From positions 32,001-96,000 of IMG/VR virus record IMGVR_UViG_2671180612_000001: a stretch of 64,000 nucleotides of DNA, one strand, 5' to 3'. How positions within the stretch are numbered: position 1 is the stretch's first letter; every line of letters begins with the position of its first letter. The position numbers were made by a program, and so were the translations under genes. Source of the stretch: a virus. Taxonomy: Duplodnaviria > Caudoviricetes. The notes under the pieces were generated by a model, which worked only from the letters and a program-made list of their open reading frames with translations, did no database searches and was not told the DNA's origin. Below, one piece after another: positions 10,005-44,399 of the stretch.

Positions 10005-10053
10005 CAGTTCGAAATCCATCAATCCGGAAATCTCGAAATCTGGAAATCGCGAA

Positions 10054-11610
10054 ATGAACGCCATTGTCCCGCGCGCGACGATCGAGGAGATCGTCGGCCA
10101 CCGTAACCGAGCGGTCGCGCTCTACACCGACGCCTACGAGCAGGCGGTGCTCGCCGACGATCTCGTCAAGAAGGCGCGCGAGGCGTGGTCCGCGGCGGCT
10201 CCCTCGCGCACTGCCTATCACGGCCAGCACGAAGAGGTTGCCGCCTTCAACGCGCTCGTCTCCATCCCGGACATGAGCCAATACGTCCGCACGGCGACCA
10301 GGCTGATCGACGCCGGCATCTGGGCGTCCATCATCGAGCGCACGGACCTCGAGCGCCTCATGGACAAGGAGGCCAAGGACAAGTTGCGCGAGCAGATGCG
10401 CTACGTCCCGGAGCGGGTCAGCCATCGCACCGGCGAGATCATCAACCAGGACGAGATCGACAAGGGCCTGCCGCCCGTCACCGTCGAGAACGTCGCGGCG
10501 ACCCTCGAGCACTTCATGCTGGACGCCGAGACGATCTGGCGCCGGGGCATCGCCAACGCCTTCGCCAAGCTCGACCGGCGCTTCCGCTCGCACGACGGCT
10601 GGAAGATCGGCTCGCGCGTGATCCTGACCCGCTGCTTCAACGATTGGGGCTCCTGGAGCTCCTATTCCAACGAGCGCGAGACCCTGATCGACATCGAGCG
10701 GATCTTCACGATCATGGACGAGGGCGTCACCAAGGCGACCTATGCGACGTCCATCGGGCAGATCGACCAGGAGCGCAAAGGCGTCCACGCGCCGGCGCAG
10801 ACCGAGGTCGACACGACCTACTTCAAGATCCGCATCTTCAAGAACGGGAACGCGCACCTCTGGATGAAGCGCGACGACCTAGTCGAGAAGGTGAACAAGC
10901 TGCTCGGCGAGTATTATGGCGACGCGATCGGCGACCACGAGAACGTGCCGACGGACGAGGACGTCCTCAACAACCCGAAGACCTCGCTCGCCAAGAATAT
11001 GGGCTTCTTCCCGACGCCCGTCGCGGTCGGCGAGCGCGCGATCGGCAACGCCAAGCTCTACGCCAACAAGGACGGCCCGCCGCTGCGCATCCTCGAGCCG
11101 TCGGCAGGCGAGGGGAACATCGCCAAGCTCCTGGCCCGGCCGCTGACGCTGGAGTCCAAGTGGGAGTGGGACGAGAAGGCGCGCGAGCGTGTCGAGATCG
11201 TGCTGGCGTCGCAAAAGCCCATCGTCCATGTCGTCGAGCTCCATCCCGGCCGGGCGAACGAGCTGAAAGGGCAGGGGCTCTACGAGAAGGTCGTCCAGAA
11301 CGACTTCCTCCTGGTGCAGCCGCACCCGTCCGCGCTCTACGACCGGATCGTCATGAACCCGCCGTTCGACCGGGATCGCGACATCGATCACGTCTACCAC
11401 GCGCTCAAGTTCCTCAAGGAGGACGGGATCCTCGTCTCGGTCATGTCGGCCGGCGTCGAGTTCCGGACCACGAAGAAGGCGATCGCGTTCCGGGAGCTCG
11501 TCGAGAAGCGGGGAGGGTGGTTCGAGGATCTGCCCGACCGCTCATTCGCCGAGAGCGGGACCAACATCAACACGGTGCTTTGCATCATCGGTCGCAAGAC
11601 CCGTTGGTAG
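10054..11610 (+). CDS. DUF4942-like domain fused to an N6-adenine DNA methyltransferase domain
   Basis: YFKIRIFKNGNAHLW; GFFPTP; ILEPSAGEG (SAM-binding motif I); IVMNPPF (motif IV); FAESGTNINT. Confidence 0.85.
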   Translation: MNAIVPRATIEEIVGHRNRAVALYTDAYEQAVLADDLVKKAREAWSAAAPSRTAYHGQHEEVAAFNALVSIPDMSQYVRTATRLIDAGIWASIIERTDLERLMDKEAKDKLREQMRYVPERVSHRTGEIINQDEIDKGLPPVTVENVAATLEHFMLDAETIWRRGIANAFAKLDRRFRSHDGWKIGSRVILTRCFNDWGSWSSYSNERETLIDIERIFTIMDEGVTKATYATSIGQIDQERKGVHAPAQTEVDTTYFKIRIFKNGNAHLWMKRDDLVEKVNKLLGEYYGDAIGDHENVPTDEDVLNNPKTSLAKNMGFFPTPVAVGERAIGNAKLYANKDGPPLRILEPSAGEGNIAKLLARPLTLESKWEWDEKARERVEIVLASQKPIVHVVELHPGRANELKGQGLYEKVVQNDFLLVQPHPSALYDRIVMNPPFDRDRDIDHVYHALKFLKEDGILVSVMSAGVEFRTTKKAIAFRELVEKRGGWFEDLPDRSFAESGTNINTVLCIIGRKTRW

Positions 11611-21743: not shown

Positions 21744-22127
21744 ATGAGCGCAGAAGAGAAGCCAAACCTCGGGAACCGTCGTCGTGGCCGCATCGGCAAT
21801 GAGATCACGGGTCCGCGTGGCGCCGCCGCGGTGATCGGCACCAAGGACGGCCAGGTTTCGCCGCGCACCTACGTCGTTGAGACGCGCGACCTCAATGCCG
21901 GCCCGCGCATCGTGGTTGAAGGGACGTCCCGTCACCTAGCGATGGACCCGTATCCGCCCGAGAAGATGGACCCGCAGTCCTCCAAGCTGATGGCCGCTAT
22001 CTTCGGCGAGAAGGAAGCGCAGACCACGCAGCGCGTGGCGCGCGCCGATGACGACCAGGTGCGCTCGGCCGCGAAGCGCCTCCTCAAGAAGCGCATGGGC
22101 CTCATGACGGCGCTCGCCCACCGCTGA
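21744..22127 (+). CDS. putative antitoxin for Doc
   Basis: Directly upstream of and coupled to doc; amphipathic C-terminal helix ending LMTALAHR. Confidence 0.6.
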   Translation: MSAEEKPNLGNRRRGRIGNEITGPRGAAAVIGTKDGQVSPRTYVVETRDLNAGPRIVVEGTSRHLAMDPYPPEKMDPQSSKLMAAIFGEKEAQTTQRVARADDDQVRSAAKRLLKKRMGLMTALAHR

Positions 22128-22552
22128 TGATCTTCCTCACTGTCGAACAGGTCATCGGGGCTCACGACATGATCCTCGAGGCGACCGGCATAGGTGTGCC
22201 CGGCGTCAAGGATGCCAACACGCTCGCATCGGGCGTCGACCGGGCCGAGACCCGCGCCTATTACAACGAAAGCGCTGACGCGGCTTCCCTGGCCGCGGCA
22301 GTGTGCTTCGGCATTGCCAAGGCGCATGGATTCAACGACGCCAACAAGCGCACCGCGGCCTTCTGCTGCGAACTCTTCCTGAACCTCAATGGGCTGGATC
22401 TCGATCTCTCGGACAACCTGTTCGAGGACATGATCGTGAACCTCGCGGCCGGCGCGCTCAACGAGGAGGGCTTCGCCAACATGATCCGCCCGCTGCTACG
22501 GCCGGCGAGCGACGACCTGGAAGAGGTCGAGGATCACGCGCCCGGCCCGTGA
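22127..22552 (+). CDS. doc: Fic/Doc family death-on-curing toxin
   Basis: Catalytic motif HGFNDANKRTA. Confidence 0.9.
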   Translation: MIFLTVEQVIGAHDMILEATGIGVPGVKDANTLASGVDRAETRAYYNESADAASLAAAVCFGIAKAHGFNDANKRTAAFCCELFLNLNGLDLDLSDNLFEDMIVNLAAGALNEEGFANMIRPLLRPASDDLEEVEDHAPGP

Positions 22553-24733: not shown

Positions 24734-26371
24734 TCAGCGGTTCCACGCCGGCCGCGGGCTCGCCACCTTGCGGAAGACGAGCGGCGAGACCTTGATCTGG
24801 AACGCCTTGGACGCCTCGCGGCGCCAGGACATCGCGAGGTTGAAGAGGTCCATGTAGGAGCTCACGCCCGTCGCAGCGTCGAGACCCTCCATCTTGTGCG
24901 GCAGGGTGCGCAGCAGGAGCTTCTCACCGTTGCGGAACGGGATCGGCACGCTGTTCTCCGCGCCCCGACGGTTGACGCCGCCCGTGACCGGCATCGTCAG
25001 CCCGCCGCGGTAGCGGAGCTGCAAGGACGCGCCGACGAAAATCGTCTCCTCGGACAGAAGCTCGACCTCGCAGAGCGCTTCCATCCAGTCGCCGGCGACG
25101 ATCCCGAGGGCCGAGTAGCTCGGCATGACCGGCGTGAGCGACAGCGAGTTGACGCCAGCAGCCGGAGCGGCCGGGGTGATGGTGAAGACCTGCTTCTCGG
25201 CAACGCCGGCCTCGATCACCTCCTTCGAGGCGACGATCGCTTCGGTCTGGCCGGCACCGCGGTTCACCGTGACGCTCGTTGCGACGCTGCCGGTGATCCC
25301 GCCGTTCTTGGTGCCGTTGGTGCCGAGGAACCCGCCCGTCGCGAGCAGATTGCCGGCGCGCGAACGATCCACGAAATCGCCTGCCGTCACCATGGAGCGC
25401 AGCACGTCGAGGAGCATCCCCGGTTCGGAGTTGCGGATCCAGTGACCGACCGACGTCATGTGGATGCCGTCCTCGAGGATCGGCTGGCCGGACGCGATCG
25501 CGTCCCGGATGAGCTTGCGATCATCGACGACCTTCACGCCCTCGCGAGAGCCGAGCGTCGCGCACCAGGCGCCGAAGTTTTCGAGCGTCACATGGCGCGG
25601 ATCGCCGACCTTCCAGTCGGTGCGCGGGGTCGGCATGAGGACCACGGCCCAGATGCCGGCATAGCGGAGCATGGTGAGGATGCGATCGAGCCGGAGCTTC
25701 AAGGTCTCGAGCGTGATCGGGGTCTTGCCGTCGGCCTGGCGCCGGCTGTTCACGTCGTTGGTGCCGATGTCCACGACCACGATGTCGGGCCGCATGTCGA
25801 TCGTGCGCTTCAGGCGCTCGTAGCCGCCGTTGAGGTCGTCACCGCCCAGACCTGCCTGCGATCCGGCGAAGCCCTTGGCGTCGCCCGCGCGGTTCTGCGC
25901 ATAGTCCTTATCGAACCAGGAGTTGACGTTGAAGCGCCCGTCCATGGACTGAAGAAGGCCCATGTCGCCGAACGCCGCGCCGGTGTTGATGTCGATGCGG
26001 TTGTGGAGCGCCGGCGGGACCGCGTTGCCGAAAGCGTAGCCCGAGCGCGCGATGAAGCTGTGGCCGAGACCCATGACCTTGGCGCCGGTCTTCAGTGGAA
26101 GAGCGGGAAGAGTGCGCGGGGTCGCGAAAGGAGCGCTGGTCGGCAGAACCTCTGCGGTGAGAGACGCGCCGTCGGGATCGGCGGGAAGGGTAAGCTTCCA
26201 GAAGCCGAACTCGTCGGCATGAATCGTTCCGGCGAGCGAGGCGCCGGCCTTGACCGTCACCGGCACGCCAGCACGCGCCCGGCCCGAGACGACGAACGTC
26301 TTGACGTCATAGGCGTCGATCGTGGGAACCGTATCAGCGGGGATCTTCGAGTAGGGACCGTATCCGGACAT
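24734..26371 (-). CDS. Ig-like N-terminus plus SGNH/GDSL esterase-like protein
   Basis: GLGHSF, AGLGGD, DIGTND, DGIH catalytic blocks; VSGRA..G..VTV...ADEFGFWKL Ig-like segment. Confidence 0.8.
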   Translation of the reverse strand: MSGYGPYSKIPADTVPTIDAYDVKTFVVSGRARAGVPVTVKAGASLAGTIHADEFGFWKLTLPADPDGASLTAEVLPTSAPFATPRTLPALPLKTGAKVMGLGHSFIARSGYAFGNAVPPALHNRIDINTGAAFGDMGLLQSMDGRFNVNSWFDKDYAQNRAGDAKGFAGSQAGLGGDDLNGGYERLKRTIDMRPDIVVVDIGTNDVNSRRQADGKTPITLETLKLRLDRILTMLRYAGIWAVVLMPTPRTDWKVGDPRHVTLENFGAWCATLGSREGVKVVDDRKLIRDAIASGQPILEDGIHMTSVGHWIRNSEPGMLLDVLRSMVTAGDFVDRSRAGNLLATGGFLGTNGTKNGGITGSVATSVTVNRGAGQTEAIVASKEVIEAGVAEKQVFTITPAAPAAGVNSLSLTPVMPSYSALGIVAGDWMEALCEVELLSEETIFVGASLQLRYRGGLTMPVTGGVNRRGAENSVPIPFRNGEKLLLRTLPHKMEGLDAATGVSSYMDLFNLAMSWRREASKAFQIKVSPLVFRKVASPRPAWNR

Positions 26372-30483: not shown

Positions 30484-30813
30484 ATCCAGCCTAGCGGAGA
30501 GCGTCGCGTCACAGCGGCGCTTTCTTGTGGGCTGGGCGAGCGGGACGGGTCGGGGCGGAGACGGATCAAGGGGGCGGGGAGGGGACGCGCCTGCCTCGAG
30601 GAATTTTGGAACGGCTGGGCTAAATGGGACTCGGGGAAACGACTGCGGGGCGTCGTTTCCCCTTGTTGCCGCCGGCCCACCTCCGACTGCCCCGTGGGTG
30701 CCCGCGGCGAATACCGTGCCAACGGAAATTAGGAACGGGGAGGAAAGGACGTGGGCGCCCAAGATCCGGACGGGGATGGGCCTATGCGGCGCCCCGAGGG
30801 CGCCCGCGGGGCG

Positions 30814-30943
30814 GGGGCGCGCGTAGGACGCCCCGCGACGGGGAGCAAATCACAAAACCGGGGCAACGCGTAGCTGACTACGGGTCAGTCGGGGCGCGCG
30901 ACTAGGACGACGCGCGTCGGGGAGCAAGTCACGAAAGCGGGGC
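30814..30943 (+). repeat. two imperfect direct repeats of about 52 bp
   Basis: GGGGCGCGCG..TAGGACG...CGGGGAGCAA(A/G)TCAC(A/G)AAA(C/G)CGGGGC at 30814-30864 and 30891-30943. Confidence 0.8.
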
Positions 30944-31095
30944 TCACAGGGGCGTGACGCAATTCATTTTCGTTCGTCGCGACTCATTCCTTTTCGTTTT
31001 TGCGTAAGTAAGCGCTTGCTTATTCATGTGCGTCGTATAAATTCATTTGTGTCGCACACAGACGACATCAGCAACACACAAAGAAAGACACTCAC

Positions 31096-31692
31096 ATGAC
31101 GCAGATCGCTTCTAACGACTTCGCTGCTAAGCTCGCTGCATACGCTGACGCTGCTAAGCTCAACATCGTGACGCGCAAAGACAAAGTGTCTGACGCGAAC
31201 GCTAAGCACTTCGATCGCTCGATCGCGATGCTTGCGAATGAGACGATCGCACAAGCTCTTATCGCTGCTGACGTCGATGCGTCGCGCTACACGTCGCAAG
31301 TCTATGCGTTCAAGAAAGAGAACGCTATTCTTGACTATCTCTTCAATAATAAGACGATGCAGAACTATATCGCAGAGATTTTTGTCAGCGCGTTTCGTAA
31401 GCATCACGTCAAGAACGCAGCGTTGACGAAGAGCGAAGCGAAGCTTGCGCTTAACAAGTCTGCGAAGCTTAGCGAAAGCGAAGCAACGTATATCGTGCAA
31501 CAGTCGAAAATCATCGATGAAAGCACTGTGAACGCGCAGCATAAGACGACGCTAGACGCTTTCGTCAATCTGCGTATGTTCTCGCAAGTCTCGACGTTCG
31601 AAACGCGCGACGCTTACGCAATCAATCTCGAAAGCGACATGACGCAGCGCATGATTGCGCGTCTTAACATCGCTGATATGTTCGCTGCGTAA
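31096..31692 (+). CDS. GG/CC-free gene; Gly/Pro/Trp-free winged-helix-like protein (paralogue family A)
   Basis: 198 aa; QVYAFKK and IDESTVNAQHKTTLDAFVNLRMF align with the 28241 protein; own promoter and 3' hairpin. Confidence 0.8.
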   Translation: MTQIASNDFAAKLAAYADAAKLNIVTRKDKVSDANAKHFDRSIAMLANETIAQALIAADVDASRYTSQVYAFKKENAILDYLFNNKTMQNYIAEIFVSAFRKHHVKNAALTKSEAKLALNKSAKLSESEATYIVQQSKIIDESTVNAQHKTTLDAFVNLRMFSQVSTFETRDAYAINLESDMTQRMIARLNIADMFAA

Positions 31693-31708
31693 ATCGACAC
31701 AGACGCTC

Positions 31709-31735
31709 GCTGACGCGCTTCGATAGCGCGTCAGC
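31709..31735 (+). terminator. hairpin after the GG-free gene
   Basis: GCTGACGCGCT-TCGAT-AGCGCGTCAGC (11-bp stem, itself GG/CC-free); no U-tract. Confidence 0.5.
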
Positions 31736-32049
31736 TACTCGCGAAGCTCTCACGCTCAAACGCTCGCTCTTGAGCTTCTATGACGATCCCAGAGCGTGAG
31801 ACACCCCAGCCACAGCGCGCGACACTCGCCCAATCCCTCCTCGCGCATCGCGTGACATCGGGGACACAGCCCCAGGGGACGACGTGTGCTGGGTGGACAC
31901 ACTCTGTTGCACGGGGACCATGTGGCGGGAAGGACACGAGGTCCTAGAAGCCCCGCCACAGGTCGAAGGGGATGCCTTTTGAGGGCGAGACACTCCCCGG
32001 CCTGGACCCTTAATCCTACATCGACTTAGAGTAGATCGGAGGGGCTGCG

Positions 32050-33191: not shown

Positions 33192-33568
33192 TGCGGAAGC
33201 TCCCCGATTGCGGCCGGGAGTTCTTCCGACACCAGCCTCCTATCGATGAGCGATTGGGCGAACTCGGCGCAGCGCTCCTTCGGAGACTTCTCCTTGGCGT
33301 ATTCGGTCTGGCTCGTCCTTGCGGTTTCGGCCCAAATTTTCTGTCGCTGCTCCTGCGAGAAGTTTGCGAAGAGCCGCTGCTGTGCATCGACGACCTTTCG
33401 ACGCGACTCCTCGACCATTCCATCGGTGATCGAGAACTTGTCCGCGTTGCAGAGCCTCATCACCTGATAGGGCAGGAAGAGCTGACGCAGCATTTCATCG
33501 GAGAGCTCTTCGGCGAGCGCCGGGACAGTTCCGGCTAGAATCGCCAGCGCAGCGCCGGCGACCCTCAT
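33188..33568 (-). CDS. putative exported protein
   Basis: Signal peptide MRVAGAALAILAGTVPALA; Cys pair. Confidence 0.65.
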   Translation of the reverse strand: MRVAGAALAILAGTVPALAEELSDEMLRQLFLPYQVMRLCNADKFSITDGMVEESRRKVVDAQQRLFANFSQEQRQKIWAETARTSQTEYAKEKSPKERCAEFAQSLIDRRLVSEELPAAIGELPQ

Positions 33569-33801
33569 TTCATGTGCTCCTTCGCCCAAAGCTCGAGGCT
33601 CTGCTCGAGGATGTCCACCATGGGCACGCCCGTCGAGGCCGAGATCATCTTGTAGCGCTTGTGGAGCTCGGGCGTGACGCGGAACCCGAACGAGATCTTC
33701 GCCTCGGACGGACGGGTCATGTTGTCGGCGGGCGCCTGCGGGATCGACAGGTTCGCTATCGAGCCAGCGCGGGCCTTGGACGGGGGCTTGGGAATGCTCA
33801 T
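33565..33801 (-). CDS. ParG-like ribbon-helix-helix partition protein
   Basis: Small gene coupled downstream of parA; flexible N-terminus then SFGFRVTPELHKRYKMISASTGVPMVDIL. Confidence 0.75.
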   Translation of the reverse strand: MSIPKPPSKARAGSIANLSIPQAPADNMTRPSEAKISFGFRVTPELHKRYKMISASTGVPMVDILEQSLELWAKEHMK

Positions 33802-34454
33802 GCTTGGTCGAGCTCCGGCATCAGGGAGGTGAGCTTCTTGGCGATCTCGTTGGCGACTTCGGTGGCCCGCTCGTTCAGCGTGCCGAACGTCGTCTCGGCT
33901 GCGGACCTGCCCTGGTTCTGGGCGAGCTGGTAGCCGGTCTTGGACGTCAGGTCCGTCTTCGCCACCTCGTAGCCGCCGCTCTCGAGGAAGGCGCGTGCTT
34001 CCTCCGTCGCCGACGTGCCAGGGGCGGTCTTGTTGATCACGAAGAGGATCTTGCGCTTATCGATGCCCTTGGCGACGAGCTCGTTGGCGAACATCACCTG
34101 GGGCTTGAGATCGTCGAAGGTGGTTCCGGTCGGGACCACGACGAGCCGGGATGCCTTCGCCAGCTCCAGCGAGGTCTGGTCAGAGTCCGGCCGGCCGTCC
34201 GCGACGATGAGGTCGTGCTTCTCGCGAGCCAGCGCGCGCACCGTCGAGAAGGCTTCCGCCTCGATCTCGGGCTCGATGCCGGCGGCTTTGCGGGACGCGG
34301 CCCAATCCACGGCCGTCAACTGCCGCACGTTGAAGTCGGCGATCTTCACGCTCCAGCCGCCCGCCGAGAACGTCTGGGCGATGAGGCGCGCGAAGGTGGA
34401 CTTGCCGACCCCTCCCTTCTGGGAGAGGCAGGAGATCATGAGCTGGTCAGCCAT
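33798..34454 (-). CDS. parA: ParA/ParF-type Walker-A partition ATPase (type Ib)
   Basis: Deviant Walker A QKGGVGKST, ADFN, IVADGRP; 218 aa with no N-terminal HTH. Confidence 0.9.
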   Translation of the reverse strand: MADQLMISCLSQKGGVGKSTFARLIAQTFSAGGWSVKIADFNVRQLTAVDWAASRKAAGIEPEIEAEAFSTVRALAREKHDLIVADGRPDSDQTSLELAKASRLVVVPTGTTFDDLKPQVMFANELVAKGIDKRKILFVINKTAPGTSATEEARAFLESGGYEVAKTDLTSKTGYQLAQNQGRSAAETTFGTLNERATEVANEIAKKLTSLMPELDQA

Positions 34455-35159: not shown

Positions 35160-35762
35160 TCAGGCCGCTTCCGCCCGGCGCATGTCCTCGCCGACCTGGT
35201 GCATGAGGTAGGCGACCTTCTGACGTAGATTGTGGAGCGCGTCCTGGGGCCGCAGGCCGTAGGCGAGGGCGTTGTTCTCGATCCGGTAGTCGACGATCGT
35301 CCGGTCGTAGTGGTCGAACTCGTAGGGGCTGTCGTCAGCGAGCGGGTTCACGACCTCGACGACGATCCCGCCATGGGCCTTGTAGTAGGCGCCCTGGTCG
35401 CGGCGCACCGAGCCGAAGGAGTAGCAGCGGTCGGGCGCAGTGTTCGCCTTGGCGACGGCCATCGCGGGGATGCCGTGCATTCCGAAAAGATCCTCGATCC
35501 GGTTGCCGATCTGGCCGAGGAGGTCGCGCACGACCCACTCCTTCCCGGCGATCGTCACCGTCTCGAGCTTGCCGGCCTGCGTGTAGACCTGGCGCTCGTC
35601 CAGGCCACAGTGGCGCATGGCGAAGTCCCGGATCGGGAAGCCGTCGTCGTAAGGGCGATAGTCGAACTCGGCCGAGAGGATGCGCTGCACCTCGCTCTTG
35701 CCGGCGCCGGGGTTGCCGCACAGCGCGATGAAACGAGGGCGGTGCTTGTGGGAAGAGAACAT
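35160..35762 (-). CDS. deoxynucleoside monophosphate kinase-like P-loop protein
   Basis: IALCGNPGAGKS; VRDLLGQIG; SVR..Q. Confidence 0.8.
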   Translation of the reverse strand: MFSSHKHRPRFIALCGNPGAGKSEVQRILSAEFDYRPYDDGFPIRDFAMRHCGLDERQVYTQAGKLETVTIAGKEWVVRDLLGQIGNRIEDLFGMHGIPAMAVAKANTAPDRCYSFGSVRRDQGAYYKAHGGIVVEVVNPLADDSPYEFDHYDRTIVDYRIENNALAYGLRPQDALHNLRQKVAYLMHQVGEDMRRAEAA

Positions 35763-36113: not shown

Positions 36114-36298
36114 CAGTGGATCACTCCAGGGGTTTCGGCCCGGTCGGTCTGGCGGATACGCTCGGCCGCGGAGAGCAGCCGGCGCTTGAGCTCGCGGTTC
36201 TCCTCCTCGAGGCGCTCGCAGCGCTCGACCAGGTGCTCCTGCGTGAGCAGGTTCAGCCCGGCCGAGTTGAAGAAGTTGGCAGCGTCTCGTTGGCTCAT
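36113..36298 (-). CDS. small coiled-coil protein
   Basis: ATGA coupling to the helicase. Confidence 0.55.
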   Translation of the reverse strand: MSQRDAANFFNSAGLNLLTQEHLVERCERLEEENRELKRRLLSAAERIRQTDRAETPGVIH

Positions 36299-37890
36299 GC
36301 AGCCAGATCCTTTCTCTCGAACTGCGACCAGTCGAAGTCCTGGCCGTCAGGCAGAATGTTCTCCGCGAAGCCGGGCGTGGCCTCGACGATGGCACGCCGC
36401 TGGCGCGAGTGATCGCCTAGCGACTTGTTGTTGGAGACCGAGTAGTCGGCGATGAACGCGACGTTCGGTCCAGACCGTTTGGCGCGCAGCCCGCGCCCGA
36501 TCCGCTGGCGCAGCGAAATCTCGGCTTTGTAGCCGCCGGCGAGCTGCACCAGCCCAACAGAGGGCACGTCAACGCCGACGTCCAGGATGGTCGTGCCGAT
36601 CACGACGTCGATTTCACCGCGGCCGAGCTGGCGAAGGGCCTTCTTGCGCGCGTCCTGGTCGTTCTCGCCACGGATGAACTCCACCCGCAAGCCCAGATGC
36701 TCCATTTTCGCTTTGAGCGTGTCCCCGTGCTCGGTGCGAACGATCAGGGTCATCACCGGCAGGCCGAAGCGCTTTGCCATCAGCGCGTCGCGGATGATGT
36801 CCTTGTGCATGAAGGGGTTCTTCATGTAGCCGAACTCGTAGGCACGCTGAAAAGGCGAGGTGCGCCGGAGCTTCTCATGCGGCTTCGATGTCACGAATTT
36901 GAACACCGGCCGGGCGAGCACGCCCCGCGCGATCAGCATCTCCTCCGTGATCTGGATCAGCACCGGGCCGAACGCGGCCATCAGCCGGAGATTGTCCTCG
37001 GCGTTCTGGCGCATGAAGGGCGTGGCCGTCAGCGCGACGCGGATGCGAGCCTTCTTGCAGTGGCGCAGGATCTCGTAATAGCTCGAGCCGCCGGCCTCGT
37101 GGGCTTCCTCGCCGATCACGACCTCGACCATGGACAGGAACTCGATCGCCTGGCTCCGGCGCTTCAGCTTGCGGTCGTAGACGACCTGCGCCTTCTTCGC
37201 GGCGATCTCGCGCTGCTTCTCGGGCGCGACGCTCTCGTCGTAGCCCTTGGCGATCACTTTCCGGATCTCCTTGTCGAGCGAGGGCTCCTCGAGCCGCTTC
37301 ACGAAGGTCTGCACCATCCCGAGGTTCACGCCGCGCACCAGCTTGAACTCGCCGTCGCCGATCTGGCCGGAGTTCATGCCGATCTCGTTGAGCTGGTCCT
37401 GCATCTGGTAGAGCAGCACGCCCCGCGTCGTCAGGAAGAGCGTCGGGCGCCGGTAGCGCGCCATGATGAGCTTGGCGATCTTCGACTTTCCGCCGCCTGT
37501 CGCGACCTGGATGATGCCGGCGCCGTGCTTTTCGACCTGCCGCAGCGCCTTGAGCTGGAAATCGTAGCGCGGATCGTCGTTTCCGAACTCGTCCACGATC
37601 GGACTCTCGGGTCCGAGCGGCTGGGGCAGGGGATCGCGCACCAGATGGACCTTGCGGCCGGCCTTCACGAGGTTGGCGCGCACGACGTTCACGAAGCCGG
37701 CCGGGAACGTGCCGTTCTCGTGGCTGTAGAACGACGACTTGCCCGACCAGGTGCCGGTCTGGAAGGCGTGCATGAACTCGTGCCCCTCGACCGTATAGGA
37801 CAGGAGGTCGGAGACGATGTTGTCCACCTCGCGGTCGCGATCGACCAGCTTTGCGACGGTGGCGTTATGAGCGAGGCGGATATTCTGCAT
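36295..37890 (-). CDS. superfamily 2 helicase (UvsW/XPB-like)
   Basis: ATGGGKS; GEEAH (DExH variant); LTATP; ILDVGVDVP; QRIGRGLR. Confidence 0.9.
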   Translation of the reverse strand: MQNIRLAHNATVAKLVDRDREVDNIVSDLLSYTVEGHEFMHAFQTGTWSGKSSFYSHENGTFPAGFVNVVRANLVKAGRKVHLVRDPLPQPLGPESPIVDEFGNDDPRYDFQLKALRQVEKHGAGIIQVATGGGKSKIAKLIMARYRRPTLFLTTRGVLLYQMQDQLNEIGMNSGQIGDGEFKLVRGVNLGMVQTFVKRLEEPSLDKEIRKVIAKGYDESVAPEKQREIAAKKAQVVYDRKLKRRSQAIEFLSMVEVVIGEEAHEAGGSSYYEILRHCKKARIRVALTATPFMRQNAEDNLRLMAAFGPVLIQITEEMLIARGVLARPVFKFVTSKPHEKLRRTSPFQRAYEFGYMKNPFMHKDIIRDALMAKRFGLPVMTLIVRTEHGDTLKAKMEHLGLRVEFIRGENDQDARKKALRQLGRGEIDVVIGTTILDVGVDVPSVGLVQLAGGYKAEISLRQRIGRGLRAKRSGPNVAFIADYSVSNNKSLGDHSRQRRAIVEATPGFAENILPDGQDFDWSQFERKDLAA

Positions 37891-37954
37891 GAAGCCTAGT
37901 GGATCTCGTTTGGAACTGTGATAAGTAAATGGTTACTTACCACAGGGATGCCTC

Positions 37955-38722
37955 ATGACGAAGCCGCAATTCCTGGAGCTCCCGGTGGGCGATCTCGCTC
38001 CGAACCCCTGGAACTCCAACTTCCTCACCCCGGACGCTGAAGCCCGGCTCGACGAGAGCCTGAAGCGTTTCGGAACCTTCAAGCCGATCGTCGTTCGCGA
38101 GTTCAACGGCGGATACGAGATCCTCGGCGGCAAGCACCGCTGGGAAAGCGCAGGCCGCATCGGCCTCGCGACCGTGCCGGTGATGAACCTCGGACCCTTG
38201 GACGACAAGCGCGCCAAGGAAATCTCGCTGGTCGACAACTACCGCTTCGGCACAGATGACGCGCAGGCGCTCGCCGAGCTGGTCAAGTCGATTGGCGAAG
38301 AAGAGATCCAGATTTACCTCCCGATCGATGAGGACGATTTGTCGATCATCATGTCTACTGCGCATATAGCGGTGGACGATCTCGATATTGACGAGAATTT
38401 CGACAAAGACGTCGATCCGCAGTCCGAAAGCGACGACGACGAGAAGCCCGAGCGCGTGCCCAAGACGCACACGCACATGCGCTTCAAGCTGACGCTGGCC
38501 GACGCCGAGACGCTCACGCGCATCATCGCGGACACCAAGCGCGCCCAGGGCTTCACCGAAGAAGACGACCTCACGAACGCCGGCGACGCGCTCATGCACC
38601 TGCTCGTCTCCGGACATAAGCAAACGGTTACTTCATCCGCTCCGCGGCCCGAGCCGCAGACCGAAGAAGACGTCGAGGCGGCGCTCGCCCGGCTCGATGA
38701 CATCGACGACGGCGATCTCTGA
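37955..38722 (+). CDS. ParB/Srx N-terminal-domain protein
   Basis: LAPNPWNSN...SLKRFG..KPIVVR...YEILGGKHRW. Confidence 0.85.
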   Translation: MTKPQFLELPVGDLAPNPWNSNFLTPDAEARLDESLKRFGTFKPIVVREFNGGYEILGGKHRWESAGRIGLATVPVMNLGPLDDKRAKEISLVDNYRFGTDDAQALAELVKSIGEEEIQIYLPIDEDDLSIIMSTAHIAVDDLDIDENFDKDVDPQSESDDDEKPERVPKTHTHMRFKLTLADAETLTRIIADTKRAQGFTEEDDLTNAGDALMHLLVSGHKQTVTSSAPRPEPQTEEDVEAALARLDDIDDGDL

Positions 38723-38925
38723 TGCCGGCCGTCTTCGACCCCAAGCCGAAGTTCCGGGACTGCCGGAGCTGCACCTTCTTCAAGCGCGGCAACACCGCGC
38801 CCGAGTGCGGCCTCTGCGACTCCGGCGAATTTTACGAACGCAAGCGCTCCGTCCGCGAGATCCGCGAGATGAACGACAGCGAAGCGATGACCTTCCTCCG
38901 AAATGAGATGACCTACGATGACTAA
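38722..38925 (+). CDS. small Cys4 protein
   Basis: CRSC...CGLC. Confidence 0.65.
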   Translation: MPAVFDPKPKFRDCRSCTFFKRGNTAPECGLCDSGEFYERKRSVREIREMNDSEAMTFLRNEMTYDD

Positions 38926-39583
38926 GATCCCGCAGGTCGAGCTTCGCGATGTTTCCGAGCTCGTCCCCTACGAGAAGAACGCCAAGAAGCACTCCGAAGC
39001 CCAGGTCGGGAAGCTCGTGAAGCTGATCCTCAAGGTCGGCTGGACGCAGCCCATCATCACCGACGGCGACATGGTGATCATCGCCGGCCACGGCCGGCGC
39101 CTGGCCGCGCTCGAGATCGCGCGCCAGACGGGCGTCTCCAAGATCCCGGTCGTGGTCCGCTCGGACCTCACCAAGGAGGAGGCCGACGCGCTGCGCCTCG
39201 CCGACAACCGCGTCACGTCCACCGAATACGACATGGGCATGATCGAGGAGGAGCTCCGGCGCCTGGCCGCGGCCGACTTCGACATCGACATCATCGGCTT
39301 CGACGCGGCCGAGATCGAGTTCACGACGGCTGACCTTGCCGCCTTCGACGAGAGCGCCTTCGTCGAGGACGTGTCCTCGGCCGTCGAGAGCCAGCAGGAG
39401 GGCAACAAGGCCGCGGCCGAGAAGGTCGACGAGACGGCCGCGCCCGTCGTCGACGCCCTCGGCTTCAAGCGCATCACGATCGCCGAGAGCCGGCAGCTCC
39501 GCGACCTCGTCGGCCGCATGGAGACGCGCACCGGCAAGCAGGGCATCGCCGCTCTTCTCGAGCACCTGGGAGCAACCGTCTGA
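38918..39583 (+). CDS. ParB/Srx N-terminal-domain protein
   Basis: LVPYEKNAKKH...GWTQPII...IIAGHGRRLAA...LRLADNR. Confidence 0.9.
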   Translation: MTKIPQVELRDVSELVPYEKNAKKHSEAQVGKLVKLILKVGWTQPIITDGDMVIIAGHGRRLAALEIARQTGVSKIPVVVRSDLTKEEADALRLADNRVTSTEYDMGMIEEELRRLAAADFDIDIIGFDAAEIEFTTADLAAFDESAFVEDVSSAVESQQEGNKAAAEKVDETAAPVVDALGFKRITIAESRQLRDLVGRMETRTGKQGIAALLEHLGATV

Positions 39584-40011
39584 TGAGCGACGACCGCAAG
39601 ATCATCTCGCTCCGCTCGCGCGAGCCCCTGAAGATCCTGTCCGACGAGGAGTCGGCCGCGCGCGTCCAGAAGGACATCGACGAGCGGCGCCAGCTCACCA
39701 TCAAGGCCGAGCTCGCCGCGATCGACGCGCTCCGGCTCCAGGTCGAGAAGGGCGACGCCACGGGCATCGTGCTCGTCGCGCGCCACACCCCGACGGGTCT
39801 CTTCCACACGCACCTGGTCCCGGACTTCGCCGACCAGCCGGAGGACACGACCGCCCAGACGGCCTCGCTCTACGCCGGCGTCTTCACGATGATGCGCGAC
39901 GAGCTCCTGAACATGGCCTCGGTCGATCCGATCATCCACTTCGAGGAGGACGGCTCCTACAAGGAGATCTATCCGCTCGGCGGCGGGGAGATGGAGGACG
40001 GCGATGACTGA
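39583..40011 (+). CDS. hypothetical protein
   Basis: Coupled ORF within the operon. Confidence 0.65.
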   Translation: MSDDRKIISLRSREPLKILSDEESAARVQKDIDERRQLTIKAELAAIDALRLQVEKGDATGIVLVARHTPTGLFHTHLVPDFADQPEDTTAQTASLYAGVFTMMRDELLNMASVDPIIHFEEDGSYKEIYPLGGGEMEDGDD

Positions 40012-40651
40012 ATACGTCGTCGATCGTCACTTCACCTCGTCCGTCGAGCGCACGGCGCGCGTCCTGGACCTGGCCGAAGGCTTCGGCCTCGGTCTCTCGG
40101 ACAAGCGCTTCACGGTCTACGACAACCTCAAGATCGAGGTGCGCGACACGGATGTCGTCTACATCACCGGCCAGTCGGGCTCGGGCAAGTCGCTGCTTCT
40201 CAAGGATCTGATCGGCCAGATGCGGGCCGGCGGCAAGCTCGTCGCCGATCTCAACGAGATCGAGCTCGAGGAGCGCCCGGTCATCGACCTCGTCGGCCAG
40301 ACCATCAACCAGGCGACCGAGCTCCTCGGTCTCGCGGGGATCTCCGACGCCTATATCTACCTCCGGAAGCCCTCCGAGCTCTCGGACGGCCAGCGCTACC
40401 GCGTGAAGCTCGCCAAGGTGCTGGAAAGCCCCGCTGACGTCTGGGTCGCCGACGAGTTCGGCGCCGTGCTCGATCGCGAGACCGCGAAGGTGATCGCCTT
40501 CAACGTCCAGAAGGTCGCCCGGCGCATGGGCAAGACGCTCATGGTCGCAACGACCCATACCGATCTCGGCGAGGAGCTCGGGCCGGACCTCACCGTCACC
40601 AAGCGCTTCTCCGAGCGCGTGGACGTGAAGGTGAAGGAGCGCGTGTCGTGA
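40004..40651 (+). CDS. soluble ABC-type ATPase
   Basis: Walker A GQSGSGKS, signature LSDGQ, Walker B VADEF, H-loop ATTH; no TM partner. Confidence 0.9.
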   Translation: MTEYVVDRHFTSSVERTARVLDLAEGFGLGLSDKRFTVYDNLKIEVRDTDVVYITGQSGSGKSLLLKDLIGQMRAGGKLVADLNEIELEERPVIDLVGQTINQATELLGLAGISDAYIYLRKPSELSDGQRYRVKLAKVLESPADVWVADEFGAVLDRETAKVIAFNVQKVARRMGKTLMVATTHTDLGEELGPDLTVTKRFSERVDVKVKERVS

Positions 40652-41001
40652 GCGGCGGGTGGATCGGCGTCGATCTCGACGGCACGCTCGCGCACTACGA
40701 CGGCTGGAAGGGCATCGACCACATCGGCGCGCCGGTGCCGGCGATGATGAAGCGCGTGCGCGGCTGGCTCGCGGCCGGCAAGACGGTGAAGATCATGACG
40801 GCGCGCGTCTGCTCGGCCGCGCCCGACCGCGGCATGGCTCGCTGGCACATCCAGAACTGGTTCGAGCGCCAGGGCCTTCCCCGGCTCGAGGTCGTGTCCG
40901 AGAAGGATTTCGGCATGGTGCAGCTCTGGGACGACCGGGCGATCCGCGTCGAGGAGAACACCGGACGCTACTACGACCAGATCTCGGGGTGTTCGCGATG
41001 A
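40648..41001 (+). CDS. HAD-superfamily phosphatase-like protein
   Basis: GVDLDGTL, IMTAR, K...LWDDR. Confidence 0.8.
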   Translation: MSGGWIGVDLDGTLAHYDGWKGIDHIGAPVPAMMKRVRGWLAAGKTVKIMTARVCSAAPDRGMARWHIQNWFERQGLPRLEVVSEKDFGMVQLWDDRAIRVEENTGRYYDQISGCSR

Positions 41002-41110
41002 GCCGCGGCCTGATCCTCGCGCTCTGCGCGCTCCTGTCGTGCTGCACACCGCTCGCACCCGTCTTTGCGAGCGCTGTGACGCTTGCGGAAAGCGTCTCAC
41101 ATTGACCAGG

Positions 41111-42046
41111 ATGCTCACCAGCGCTGATTTCGAGTTCCCGACGCACACGACGAGCGTCGAGCGCGTGGACGCGCCCAGCGCCCGTTTCTCGCTGATGGAC
41201 GATATGTTCGTCGAGCGCGGCACCAAGGCAGATTGGGAGCTGCTGCACCATCTCCACTACAAGGCCGAGAAGCTGCCGATGGGCGCGCGCTTCTGGCGCC
41301 TCGATCTCCACGGCGAGTCGATCGGCGTTCTCGTGACCGGATGTCCGAAGGGCCTCCTCAAGGAGCGCCACATCGCGTTCCCGGCGATCAAGCCGACGGG
41401 CGGGGACACCAAGCTGACGAACACGAACCGCTACAAGTGGATCAACGCCAACATGCGCGTCGTCTCCCGCTTCGTGGTCGACACGATGTTCCGCGGCATC
41501 GGCGCCGGCTACCGGATGATGAACCTCGTCTCGCGCCTCGAGGGCGCGCCCATCATGGAGATCCAGAGCTCCATGTCGAAGTTCAACATTTTCGGGCAGA
41601 AGGCCGGCTTCCGGTTCGTCACGCCCCAGAACGCCAACAAGTTCGAGGCGGGGCTCCGGTTCTTCCGGTCGAACTTCGAGGCGAGCCCGCAGGACTTCGA
41701 GGCGATCGTCGCCGAGATCGATGCCATGCCGGAGAGCCAGCGCCAGGCCACGATCGTCAGGTGCAAGGACTTCTACCTGCGCAACTCGGCGCTCGAGAAC
41801 ACGGGCAAGACGCGCGAGCGCGGCGCATCCCGCGTGGACGCCATGACGGCGCGCGACACCATCAAGGCGATCCAGCAGATGAGCCTGGCCTCGCCCATGT
41901 ATGGCGTCTGGCGCAATCCGGACGCGGGCCGGGAGATGCCTGCCCGCCTGCCGCTGCGCGCGTTCGACTGGCAGGCGCCGACCGCGCCGATGGTGTTCCA
42001 GGGCGGGTTCGTCGAGCCGGGCGCATCCGTGCCGAGGATCGTCTGA
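41111..42046 (+). CDS. GNAT-fold acyltransferase (Mom-like?)
   Basis: LHHLHYK; SRFVVDTMFRGIGAG acetyl-CoA-binding motif; MSKFNIFGQKAGF. Confidence 0.75.
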   Translation: MLTSADFEFPTHTTSVERVDAPSARFSLMDDMFVERGTKADWELLHHLHYKAEKLPMGARFWRLDLHGESIGVLVTGCPKGLLKERHIAFPAIKPTGGDTKLTNTNRYKWINANMRVVSRFVVDTMFRGIGAGYRMMNLVSRLEGAPIMEIQSSMSKFNIFGQKAGFRFVTPQNANKFEAGLRFFRSNFEASPQDFEAIVAEIDAMPESQRQATIVRCKDFYLRNSALENTGKTRERGASRVDAMTARDTIKAIQQMSLASPMYGVWRNPDAGREMPARLPLRAFDWQAPTAPMVFQGGFVEPGASVPRIV

Positions 42047-42312
42047 TGGGCAAGCCTGCAAGGACGGACAAGCAGCGCGAGATCGTCGGCGTGATCCTCG
42101 CCGCGGCCGACAAGGGCGAGCACCTGACGGTCGGCGAGATCATGAGCCGGTTGAGCTACAAGCCGAGCCGGCCGGCGTTCTCGTGCTCGCTTCGCTATCT
42201 CGAGGGCAACGGCATCATCAGCCGGGAAGGCTGGAACGGGAAGCGCATCGTGAAGCCGACCGGAGATGCCTACGCCTGGTTCCGATCGACGCCCCTGACC
42301 GGAGGCAGCTAA
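42046..42312 (+). CDS. winged-helix DNA-binding protein
   Basis: TDKQREIV...LTVGEIMSRLSY...FSCSLRYLEGNGII. Confidence 0.7.
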   Translation: MGKPARTDKQREIVGVILAAADKGEHLTVGEIMSRLSYKPSRPAFSCSLRYLEGNGIISREGWNGKRIVKPTGDAYAWFRSTPLTGGS

Positions 42313-42387
42313 TTGCCTCCGATCTACATTAGAATCTAACTCTAAGAGATAGATATAATTTCTAATGTAGGTGAGAGGCAATTAGCT
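42307..42387. repeat. imperfect inverted repeat of about 80 bp with an AT-rich loop, upstream of terS
   Basis: AGCTAATTGCCTC/GAGGCAATTAGCT and CTACATTAGAA/TTCTAATGTAG arms. Confidence 0.75.
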
Positions 42388-42408: not shown

Positions 42409-42437
42409 TTGCATAATAAGTAAGCACTTACTAAAAT
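42409..42437 (+). promoter_or_regulatory. sigma70-type promoter with operator in the spacer
   Basis: TTGCAT-N17-TAAAAT; TAAGTAAGCACTTACTAA at 42417-42434. Confidence 0.7.
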
Positions 42438-43140
42438 GACGAGCATGAGCGCAGACGAAGAGGACATCACCGGCCCGGAGAACGAGGTCGAGGAGGAAGA
42501 GGAGGTCGAGACCGAGGAGTCCCGGTCTGCCGGCTCGCGCCTGTCCGAGGAAACCTGGGCCGAAATCGAGAACGCCTACGAGCTCGGCACGAAGAAGATG
42601 CCCGAGCTCTCCAAGGAGTATGGCGTCTCCCGGCAGTCCATCTCGCGCCGCTTCAAGACCCGGAATATCTCCTTCGGCACGCGCGCCCATGAGCTGCGCC
42701 AGGCGCAGGCCAACGGCGTGAAGGCTGCGGCCGCGTCCAAGGCCGGCCAGGCTGCGATCCAAGCTGCCGAGAGCTTCGCCGACCAGCGCCGCGAATGGGT
42801 CGAGGAGAGCCGGGTCGACGGCTACAAGTCGCTGCACCAGGTCCAGCTCATCGCCAAGAAGCAGGTCGCCGAGGCGATCCGCAACAACCGGCCGATGGCC
42901 TCGATCGACGACGACCTGAAGGCGGTCGCCCGCTACCAGAAGATCCTCATCGACAACGTGAACACACGCCTTGGCATCCTCAACGCCGATGCGATCGTGG
43001 ACGAGGCGTCGCTGCCGGAGCTGCTCATCCGCGACATCACGGACGAGGAGATCCACGCGATCCAGACCAACGCCGACCAGGACGACGACGACGGCGAGAT
43101 CATCGACGAGGTGATCGACGCCTCGCTGCGCGACGCATGA
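42436..43140 (+). CDS. terS: terminase small subunit (start may be 42445)
   Basis: N-terminal HTH (ELSKEYGVSRQSISRR); directly upstream of terL. Confidence 0.75.
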   Translation: MTSMSADEEDITGPENEVEEEEEVETEESRSAGSRLSEETWAEIENAYELGTKKMPELSKEYGVSRQSISRRFKTRNISFGTRAHELRQAQANGVKAAAASKAGQAAIQAAESFADQRREWVEESRVDGYKSLHQVQLIAKKQVAEAIRNNRPMASIDDDLKAVARYQKILIDNVNTRLGILNADAIVDEASLPELLIRDITDEEIHAIQTNADQDDDDGEIIDEVIDASLRDA

Positions 43141-44399
43141 GCGACCTGATCGTCCATAACGGCCAGAAGGAGGTTCTGAACCACAAGGCCCGCTACAAGG
43201 TCATCGTCGCCGGCCGGCGCTGGGGCAAGACGCTCTGCGCGCGCACCGCGCTCATGAAGGCCGCGACGCGCGCCCCGCGCCAGCGCGTCTGGTATGTCGC
43301 GCCGACCTACGGCCAGGCCCGCCAGAATATGTGGGACGTCCTGAAGGAGTCGATCCCGCGCGAGTGGATGCGCGGCGAGCCCAACGAGACCCGGATGGAG
43401 ATCCGGCTGATCAACGGCTCGGTGATCTCGCTCAAGGGCGCCGACCAGCCCGATCGCCTGCGCGGCGTCGCGCTCCACTACGTCGTTCTGGACGAGGTCC
43501 AGGACATGAAGCCGGAGACCTGGGAGAAGATCCTTCAGCCGACGCTGACCTCGACGCGCGGCGGCGCGATGTTCATCGGCACGCCCAAGGCGTTCAACTG
43601 GTTCTACGACCTCTACATGAAGGGCCAGCGCGGGCCGACCTATCGCGCTGACGACGGCTCACTGCGCCGCAACCCCTACATGAGCTGGCAATACCCGACG
43701 ATGATGTCGCCCTTCATCCCGAAGAGCGAAATCCTCGAGGCGATGGAGAACACGGACGAGAAGACGTTCAACCAGGAATACAACGCCCGGTTCGAGACGA
43801 TGTCGGGCCGCGTCTATCACGCCTTCGACCGCAACGAGCACGTCGGCCGCTACGAGTTCAACCCCAAGCTCCCGATCTACATCGGCCAGGACTTCAACAT
43901 CGACCCGATGTCGTCGGTGATCATGCAGATCCAGCCGAACGGCGAGATCTGGTGCGTGGACGAGGCGATCCTCTTCGGCTCGAACACCCAGGAGGTCGCG
44001 GACGAGATCTCGAGGCGCTACCACCGGCAGATGAAGCAGATCAGCTTCTACCCCGATCCGGCCGGCGCCAACCGCACGCAGGCGCGCGGCGAGTCCGATC
44101 TCGACATCCTGCGCGAGGCGGGCTTCCGACGCATCCTCTACAAGAAGAAGCACCCCGCGGTCGCCGACCGCATCAACTCGGTGAACCGTCTCCTGCGCTC
44201 GGCCGACGGCCAGGTGCGTTTTCGCGTGGATCAGCGCTGCCGGCACCTCATCAAGGGCCTCGAGCAGACGATCTACAAGGAGGGCTCGCGCGAGGTCGAC
44301 AAGACCATGGGCGTCGAACACCCGTGCGACGCGCTCGGCTATTTCACGGACTTCGAGTTCCCGGTGCGCAAGGTCCAGATCCTCGGTCTGTCGATTTGA
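43137..44399 (+). CDS. terL: terminase large subunit
   Basis: AGRRWGKT, VLDEVQ, IGTPK, GQDFN, HPCDALGY. Confidence 0.95.
   Translation: MSDLIVHNGQKEVLNHKARYKVIVAGRRWGKTLCARTALMKAATRAPRQRVWYVAPTYGQARQNMWDVLKESIPREWMRGEPNETRMEIRLINGSVISLKGADQPDRLRGVALHYVVLDEVQDMKPETWEKILQPTLTSTRGGAMFIGTPKAFNWFYDLYMKGQRGPTYRADDGSLRRNPYMSWQYPTMMSPFIPKSEILEAMENTDEKTFNQEYNARFETMSGRVYHAFDRNEHVGRYEFNPKLPIYIGQDFNIDPMSSVIMQIQPNGEIWCVDEAILFGSNTQEVADEISRRYHRQMKQISFYPDPAGANRTQARGESDLDILREAGFRRILYKKKHPAVADRINSVNRLLRSADGQVRFRVDQRCRHLIKGLEQTIYKEGSREVDKTMGVEHPCDALGYFTDFEFPVRKVQILGLSI

Follow-up and report, generated by a model that had tools for sequence, protein, structure and literature searches.

Two ParB genes coupled to an apparently split ABC ATPase–GNAT enzyme beside a phage terminase: a candidate DNA-acylation module

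What does a tailed phage do with two ParB-like proteins, a soluble ABC ATPase and a GNAT-fold protein encoded in one run of genes directly upstream of its packaging terminase? The question is raised by positions 37955–42312 (plus strand) of a 64,000-nucleotide (nt) stretch, called the window below, which corresponds to bases 32001–96000 of IMG/VR record IMGVR_UViG_2671180612_000001 (111,560 bp, estimated to be 95% complete, ~64% G+C). By DNA and protein similarity, the relatives of this genome are 105–122 kb siphoviruses, including Rhizobium phages RHEph10, RHph_X66, and B1VFA, Pseudomonas phage nickie and its kin, and Stenotrophomonas and Xanthomonas phages; remoter relatives are Salmonella phage SSU5 and SSU5-like phages of Escherichia and Klebsiella. 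An earlier note on this DNA had read the cluster as a packaging-linked writer of a DNA modification, likened its GNAT protein to Mom of phage Mu, and suggested that the modification might explain an avoidance of GG dinucleotides.

The cluster consists of eight overlapping or tightly packed open reading frames (ORFs), followed by the terminase genes. A search with a 14-sequence alignment yielded a close family of 392 IMG/VR relatives, and the occurrence of each gene was counted in the best 80 of these loci (tblastn, E ≤ 1e-4, ≥40% coverage), many of which are cut by contig ends. The genes, with protein lengths in amino acids (aa) and the number of loci out of 80 in which they were found, are as follows:

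37955–38722, plus strand: ParB1 (255 aa; PF02195, E = 2.5e-12; phrog_723, E = 1e-53; 66/80)
38722–38925, plus strand: Cys4 microprotein with a CxxC...CxxC motif in the translation (67 aa; 25/80)
38918–39583, plus strand: ParB2 (221 aa; phrog_930, E = 2e-69; phrog_498, E = 3.4e-36; PDLC03229, E = 2.7e-24; 72/80)
39583–40011, plus strand: 142-aa ORF (no family match; 5/80)
40004–40651, plus strand: soluble ABC ATPase (215 aa; PF00005, E = 4.6e-13; phrog_293, E = 2e-42; 77/80)
40648–41001, plus strand: mini HAD-like protein (117 aa; DLDGT motif; TIGR01689, E = 3.8e-4; phrog_1238, E = 1.3e-6; 17/80)
41111–42046, plus strand: GNAT-fold acyltransferase-like protein (311 aa; phrog_886, E = 7e-117; AlphaFold model; 80/80)
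42046–42312, plus strand: winged helix-turn-helix protein (88 aa; phrog_900, E = 1e-9; model; 60/80)
42436–43140, plus strand: terS-like DNA-binding protein (phrog_867, E = 1.7e-37; 73/80)
43137–44399, plus strand: large terminase subunit terL (PF03237, phrog_2; start inferred from an ATGA overlap with terS; 75/80)

All genes named in the earlier note were recovered at their positions on the plus strand by Pfam, PHROGs, translations, and models; the 142-aa ORF was not on its list. Start and stop codons overlap by 1–8 bases at six of the seven junctions, the sole gap being 41001–41111, and no terminator-like site was found inside the cluster. A σ70 scan revealed no plus-strand promoter for the cluster, a negative that is uninformative for this phage.

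The relationship between the ABC and GNAT genes was evaluated using homologues of the GNAT protein. A phmmer search against 1.84 billion representatives produced 270 matches at E ≤ 0.001, and the best 150 of these were examined for fusions. In 57 of the 59 homologues at least 330 aa long, the GNAT part was preceded by a domain matching the ABC gene of the window (phmmer). When 13 long homologues were scanned for Pfam domains, PF00005 was detected in all of them and weak GNAT matches in six. Two proteins, P0087 and P0095, additionally carry an N-terminal ParB domain, i.e., are ParB–ABC–GNAT fusions. In an alignment of 25 fusions (A3), Walker A, the signature, Walker B, and GNAT motif A are conserved. 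These fusions imply that the ABC and GNAT genes of the window are the split form of one enzyme with ParB as a recurrent partner. In most other viruses, the counterparts of the two gene products are joined in one continuous chain.

Some fused homologues have further parts. P0113 contains an intein (Hint and LAGLIDADG) within its ABC ATPase domain, P0047 has a C-terminal TFIIB repeat, and P0091 has an N-terminal DnaA-like ATPase region.

The fused form is also found under a database name. Homologues in Escherichia phage Cyrano and a Klebsiella phage are labelled [quoted passage not shown]. The N-terminal half of this MK0520-type family is homologous to the ABC protein of the window and the C-terminal half to its GNAT protein; whereas MK0520-type proteins are fused, the window has separate genes with the HAD-like gene between them, coupled to two ParB genes. 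The label “ABC transporter ATP-binding subunit” attached to the GNAT protein through phrog_886 is a mislabel, an artefact of MK0520 annotation history. More generally, the database labels “ABC transporter” and partition protein are misleading for these genes. An ABC transporter was considered and rejected, since no permease family was found among the cluster proteins (Pfam, NCBIfam) and the ATPase is fused to GNAT in other viruses.

The GNAT protein has no family in Pfam or NCBIfam, and a PDB sequence search gave a best match at E = 0.88. Its structure was modelled with AlphaFold from an alignment of 40 sequences (A1). The model (pLDDT 90.8) matched many GNATs with a Foldseek probability of 1.00, and VIA gave Z scores of 10.2–11.6 over 121–153 aligned residues for more than 50 GNAT entries, bearing out the fold assigned in the earlier note. 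The GNAT core comprises approximately residues 25–177 and 263–281, with a five-helix insertion at 178–260. Residues H49, Y50, R86, R120, R128, G131, E150, and G166 are invariant in the 40 sequences, and the motif A loop, R128-G129-I-G131-A-G133, aligns with the pyrophosphate loop of acetyl-CoA GNATs when the profile is compared with the PDB. In the translated ABC ATPase, Walker A, the LSDGQ signature, Walker B, and the H-switch are all intact. With the ABC motifs intact and GNAT motif A invariant, the ABC–GNAT enzyme looks active.

A specific kinship with Mom did not hold up. When the A1 profile was aligned with Mu Mom, hhalign returned a probability of 1.4% (E = 0.036), and Mom did not feature among the 37 PDB sequences that the profile hit at E ≤ 10. 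In structural searches, Mom (8bv8_A) ranked fifth in Foldseek and second in VIA (Z 11.3, 143 residues), with more than 50 other entries within 1 Z unit; it was also second in a Foldseek search of BFVD. The best Foldseek matches were polyamine/agmatine N-acetyltransferases, at E values of ~2e-4 shared by many entries, so that ranking among GNATs is not discriminating. Like the protein studied here, Mom has the GNAT fold and a helical insertion in its C-terminal half, though the insertion may not be at an equivalent position; it is a late phage enzyme that modifies adenine in DNA, acting on an exocyclic amine of the base. However, as described in an extract of PMC13219725, Mom is a single enzyme that takes a charged tRNA (glycyl-tRNA) as substrate, depends on R111, S124, and R151, and uses neither an ATPase nor a ParB, while the family of the window keeps the classic acyl-CoA loop R-G-x-G-x-G.

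The genomic position of the enzyme was also followed beyond the close family. Alignment A3 retrieved at least 589 loci in prokaryotic genomes, and the best 80 were analysed; nearly all belong to Nitrososphaerota, Bathyarchaeia, and related archaeal metagenome-assembled genomes. A gene for a ~480-aa TerL (PF03237, PF17289) is located immediately upstream of the fused gene, on the same strand, in 42 of the 80. If only the 70 loci are counted in which the upstream sequence reaches 1500 nt or more, TerL is directly upstream in 39 and elsewhere in the locus in 10, while 21 have no member of this TerL sequence cluster. In the remaining archaeal loci, the fused gene lies among capsid, portal, tail-tube, and HK97-gp10-like genes, and in two archaeal loci a ParB_N gene directly follows it. 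A second IMG/VR set, found with P0087, comprises 32 loci, with TerL at position −1 in 17, −2 in 3, +2 in 4, and absent in 8, i.e., within two genes in 24 of 32. The ParB–ABC–GNAT fusion itself is encoded two genes upstream of TerL, in the same order as in the window. The fused gene adjoins TerL in both archaeal and IMG/VR loci, which places the ABC–GNAT enzyme among the head and packaging functions of tailed viruses in both prokaryotic domains.

Within the close family, the same gene order was observed in Rhizobium, Pseudomonas (nickie), Xanthomonas, Klebsiella, and Escherichia phages. Escherichia phage Cyrano has a minimal core of ParB, ParB, ABC, GNAT, and a small DNA-binding protein. The module is also present in SSU5-type phage-plasmids of Escherichia, Salmonella, and Klebsiella.

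The two ParB proteins differ in how readily they are recognised. ParB1 clearly exceeds the Pfam PF02195 cut-off (47.1 bits vs. 26.3) and consists of a ParB/Srx N-domain, an acidic linker, and a short C-terminal domain. ParB2, at 16.9 bits, is under the cut-off, yet is matched by phrog_930 with the E value listed above. A profile of 23 ParB2 orthologues matched the CTP-binding domain of ParB/Noc/Spo0J in the PDB (best match 7bnk, E = 7.8e-11); the GHGRR box of ParB2 aligned with GERRW of CTP-binding ParB, and its D-N with E-N. Only residues 26–94 match solved ParBs. No HTH_ParB (ParB helix-turn-helix) match was found for either protein in Pfam, the same library detecting PF17762 in another viral ParB.

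ParB2 is the paralogue closest to the ParB domains of ParB–ABC–GNAT fusions and of ParB–methyltransferase fusions. Its likeness to the ParB domain of phage ParB–DNA methyltransferase fusions (phrog_498; PADLOC MTase_II PDLC03229) is strong, at the E values listed above, although the cluster of the window has no methyltransferase domain. This likeness implies that ParBs of this type have been repeatedly attached to enzymes that modify DNA bases. An experimental precedent is reported in an extract of PMC13229309, where the phage protein ParB176 is needed to activate the thymine dioxygenase 5mYOX176 on double-stranded DNA; in ParB176, a nucleotide-binding domain at the N terminus is followed by a C-terminal domain, and no DNA-binding domain is obvious. 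The ParB176-type system may serve as a working model for ParB1 and ParB2, with the difference that 5mYOX176 is an Fe/2-oxoglutarate dioxygenase with a single ParB, while the window combines ABC–GNAT with two; the extract mentions no connection of 5mYOX176 with terminase.

From the observed folds, motifs, fusions, and terminase-side position, we infer a DNA substrate, an acyl-CoA donor, late timing, and a protective role. In the proposal that we consider to have an even chance of being right, the module would be expressed late, alongside the packaging genes, and would carry out ATP-driven, ParB-assisted acylation of a phage DNA base, most likely from acyl-CoA. The core, ParB1, ParB2, ABC, GNAT, and the winged helix-turn-helix protein, is proposed to be one DNA-directed enzyme machine made together with the packaging genes. 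The ParBs, with an NTP-binding N-domain and no helix-turn-helix, would keep the enzyme on double-stranded phage DNA or activate it there. An ABC dimer would use the binding and hydrolysis of ATP to drive DNA engagement or expose a base, and GNAT would transfer an acyl group, probably from acyl-CoA, to the exocyclic amine of that base. Virion DNA would then leave the cell marked and protected from host nucleases, while the winged helix-turn-helix protein would target or regulate the system.

Similar systems have been predicted previously. The ABC–GNAT system was reportedly first described by Iyer, Zhang, Burroughs, and Aravind in Nucleic Acids Research in 2013 (41:7635), a paper that reportedly also covers ParB–terminase large subunit (Tls) loci. 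According to section 3.4.7 of PMC7824862, which cites Iyer et al. 2013, a GNAT and ABC pairing is predicted to acylate a DNA base. ParB–Tls loci are presented in an extract of PMC4738411 as a computational prediction of phage DNA modification at packaging, and a passage of PMC8256090 likewise presents ParB proteins as the presumed guides of modification apparatuses at the packaging stage. In ParB–Tls loci as these extracts describe them, genes with ParB domains and a DNA-modifying-type enzyme adjoin terminase genes. In the window, ParB1 and ParB2 (37955–39583) and GNAT (41111–42046) likewise stand beside terL (43137–44399), an arrangement conserved in the 80 loci. The described loci hold methyltransferases, while the window has split ABC and GNAT, two ParB paralogues, and a winged helix-turn-helix gene. 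The cluster belongs to a known, computationally predicted kind of locus, here in split form. The packaging-linked writer of the earlier note fits the fusions, the terminase adjacency, and the published prediction; the specific relationship to Mom is not supported.

A biochemical parallel is offered by TmcA/NAT10, in which a GNAT working with an NTPase domain uses acetyl-CoA to acylate the amine of a nucleobase (N4 of cytidine in RNA; for TmcA, N4 of cytosine is also given in an extract of PMC13219725). TmcA/NAT10 structures appear in the Foldseek list (2zpa, E = 1.6e-3; 9aym, E = 1.5e-3), as weak matches with TMq values of 0.25–0.32 and root mean square deviations (rmsd) of 14–15 Å. The TmcA/NAT10 ATPase is helicase-like and its substrate is RNA, whereas the ATPase of the window is of the ABC type.

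Several observations weigh against DNA acylation. We found no experiments on any ABC–GNAT module member in the literature, and the comparative evidence is all guilt by association. The nearest structures at the Z score of Mom include protein, polyamine, and small-molecule acetyltransferases, the GNAT fold being silent on substrate. In sequence, the ABC domain resembles transporter-type ATPases most closely, rather than Rad50, MutS, or UvrA; no DNA-binding or base-flipping element is demonstrated in the GNAT or ABC parts. Finally, a location among head and packaging genes is just as compatible with a protein that is packaged in the virion or that assists packaging. As for the phages themselves, no literature report of DNA modification in RHEph10, B1VFA, nickie, or SSU5-type phages was found, and PMC8537276 makes no mention of restriction, digest, ParB, or ABC.

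The best-surviving alternative, which we nevertheless consider unlikely, is that the module acylates a protein, the target being either a defence or nucleoid protein of the host or a packaging or head protein of the phage, and is perhaps packaged in the capsid and injected like P1 Dar or polyvalent proteins, with ParB acting only as a tether. Many of the top structural neighbours of the GNAT model are protein N-acetyltransferases (Ard1/NatA, RimI, GCN5, HP0935), and the gene resides within the head and packaging modules of archaeal proviruses. Phage GNATs that modify host proteins, as well as GNAT domains in injected polyvalent proteins, are described in an extract of PMC7824862. However, the recurrent fusion partners are DNA-associated: ParB in P0087 and P0095, the DnaA-like ATPase in P0091, and the TFIIB repeat in P0047. 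Moreover, protein acetyltransferases seldom depend on an obligatory ATPase partner. Such a partner is known for nucleobase acetylation by TmcA/NAT10.

Another alternative concerns packaging itself, and two DNA elements near the cluster have to be introduced before it is weighed:

37916–37945, no strand assigned: 13-nt inverted repeat (12/13 complementary) containing AAGTAA-N4-TTACT, in the divergent region between helicase and ParB1
42307–42387, no strand assigned: 81-nt palindrome with 38-nt arms (82% complementary), between the winged helix-turn-helix gene and terS

Folded as RNA, the palindrome has a free energy of −50.7 kcal/mol (z −9.15). The deposited linear records of Cyrano and SSU5 end within a few hundred bases past the GNAT or winged helix-turn-helix gene, before the position of terS in the relatives. 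The palindrome could be an RNA hairpin, an operator, or, because these records end there, a packaging-related site.

If the module were a packaging accessory with no base chemistry, ParB clamps and an ABC dimer would organise or condense concatemers or mark the start of packaging, with GNAT acting on a small molecule, e.g., a polyamine, or being structural. This we hold to be quite unlikely. TerL adjacency is kept across two domains of life, the large palindrome lies just ahead of terS, and polyamine/agmatine N-acetyltransferases top the Foldseek list, all as such an accessory might have it. On the other hand, that list does not discriminate among GNATs, as noted above, and most tailed phages package their DNA with no such module. 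Furthermore, 40 diverse homologues all keep the cofactor loop of the GNAT protein and several polar residues unchanged, which argues for catalysis.

If a DNA mark is nonetheless written, it could be directed to particular dinucleotides. The window contains a 909-nt GG-free stretch at 30952–31860 and a 799-nt CC-free stretch at 30990–31788. This island covers an ORF at 31096–31692 (plus strand) and an AT-richer region upstream of it; the 198-aa product lacks Gly, Pro, and Trp. Over the genome as a whole, GG and CC occur somewhat less often than expected (0.73–0.77 of expectation). The island ORF product had no tblastn match in 50,697 phage records and only chance-level PHROG matches, and weak homologues (23–27% identity) were found in four of ten relatives searched. 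Immediately upstream of the island, at 30740–30950, there are G-rich direct repeats, GGGGCGCGC...GACGGGGAGCAA(A/G)TCAC(A/G)AAA.

Islands were surveyed in 11 genomes, all of which carry the module, by comparing the longest GG/CC-free run with the next longest:

Own genome: 799 vs. 82 nt, island
Five complete IMG/VR relatives: 501 vs. 189, 979 vs. 64, 466 vs. 195, 722 vs. 236, and 1373 vs. 246 nt, island in 5/5
Pseudomonas phage nickie: 1137 vs. 145 nt, island
Rhizobium phage RHph_X66: 432 and 336 vs. 82 nt, island split in two
Xanthomonas phage JGB6: 254 vs. 134 nt, marginal
Escherichia phage Cyrano: 136 vs. 120 nt, no island
Klebsiella phage ST13-OXA48phi12.3 (84-kb record): 110 vs. 95 nt, no island

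The earlier note had tied GG avoidance to the module and had named carriers lacking such an island as evidence against the tie. A clear island was found in 8 of the 11 carriers and a marginal one in JGB6, while Cyrano and ST13-OXA48phi12.3 had none. The link is weak, and these two carriers imply that the module does not require the island. That the module writes its mark specifically at GG/CC, with the island at 30990–31788 kept mark-free, seems improbable to us. It would agree with the presence of a single run far above the next longest in all six genomes of the clade, as well as in nickie and, split, in RHph_X66; all island genomes carry the module, and in the eight of them the island is upstream of it, at the same relative position. 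Set against this, in addition to the carriers with no or a marginal island, are the mutual relatedness of the eight genomes, which are not independent cases, so that co-occurrence may be inherited rather than functional, the restriction of the survey to carrier genomes, and the fact that the enzyme is tied to no sequence context. A still more specific scenario, in which ParB–ABC–GNAT would write an undescribed acyl mark (e.g., N-acyl on cytosine or guanine) at CC/GG during packaging and the 0.5–1.4 kb island would be an unmarked landing zone read or bound just after injection, is decidedly speculative, and we doubt it.

The weakest alternative involves genes upstream of the cluster, on the opposite strand:

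36295–37890, minus strand: SF2/UvsW-like helicase (Pfam and PHROG matches; 59/80)
35160–35762, minus strand: dNMP (deoxynucleoside monophosphate) kinase (Pfam and PHROG matches)
33798–34454, minus strand: ParA (PF01656, E = 5e-7)

The flanks are as the earlier note had described them, with helicase and dNMP kinase upstream on the opposite strand and terS/terL directly downstream; its separate ParA was confirmed too. Portal and capsid genes are found downstream of terL.

That the two ParBs are the centromere-binding part of a phage-plasmid partition system with ABC as the motor is very improbable, and partition was rejected as the main role: there is a ParA 3.5 kb off, Rhizobium relatives have phage-plasmid-like features with parA, parB, and repC (extract of PMC12509600), and the SSU5 type, to which the enterobacterial relatives belong, is named as a phage-plasmid example (extract of PMC7969092), but neither ParB has a detectable helix-turn-helix, only N-domains being matched, ParA forms with its own downstream 78-aa ORF a separate, oppositely oriented unit (33565–34454, minus strand), the ParB genes are translationally coupled to ABC–GNAT and in P0087 and P0095 fused to it, and the fused enzyme stands beside TerL in integrated archaeal proviruses. 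The fusions, the coupling, the lack of a permease family, and ParBs with no helix-turn-helix are in line with the cluster being one functional unit, as the earlier note had it, and neither a partition nor a transport system.

The remaining genes of the cluster are less widely conserved or less easily classified. Neither the Cys4 protein nor the 142-aa ORF had a family match in Pfam, PHROGs, or NCBIfam. A gene of equal length to the 142-aa ORF occupies the same position in Rhizobium phage RHph_X66; the ORF is absent from Cyrano. The HAD-like protein has DLDGT at residues 9–13, and its profile matches are weak, TIGR01689 being far below cut-off; no Pfam or PDB match was found. Its description as a HAD phosphatase is accordingly backed by the motif and the weak profile matches, and not by Pfam or PDB. 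The slot between the ABC and GNAT genes is filled by different small genes in different phages. Because of this variability and the low counts (25, 17, and 5 of 80), the Cys4 protein, the HAD-like protein, and the 142-aa ORF are lineage-specific accessories. The winged helix-turn-helix protein has no Pfam family, and for the cluster proteins that Pfam leaves unassigned, NCBIfam and PADLOC contributed nothing specific. Its model (pLDDT 85.1) has an H1-B1-H2-H3-hairpin topology and matched AF1382 and MepR in Foldseek with TMq of 0.72–0.74 and rmsd of 1.5–2.0 Å; ArsR-type winged helices were also among the matches.

The inverted repeat at 37916–37945 is a possible operator or promoter element. 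Its AAGTAA-N4-TTACT motif, which itself contains neither GG nor CC, has 35 strand matches in the window at ≤1 mismatch (0.01 expected), at ~18 sites, e.g., 496, 3052, 16300, 26679, 31006, 35778, and 37923, and further on 42418, 44410, 47020, 48038, 51218, and 57586. Many sites are intergenic, just upstream of ParB1, terS, portal, and the GG/CC-free ORF. The motif probably acts as a signal specific to the phage, whether promoter, operator, or RNA hairpin. Elsewhere in the window, a 553-aa protein encoded at 9949–11610 (plus strand) strongly matches DUF4942 (E = 1.5e-43); recorded near its gene are RNase H (8902–9339), a Fic/DOC protein (22127–22552), and a protein with a GDSL-like lipase domain (24734–26371).

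If the ParB–ABC–GNAT module does modify DNA, it would represent a new phage DNA chemistry, in which ParB assists an ATP-dependent acylation of the acyl-CoA type. The module is very widespread, with 392 IMG/VR relatives in the close family alone and at least 589 loci in prokaryotic genomes, mostly archaeal proviruses, and the system is directly testable in laboratory phage–host pairs. If true, the proposal would explain why genes of the ParB fold are found beside the terminase genes of so many viruses.

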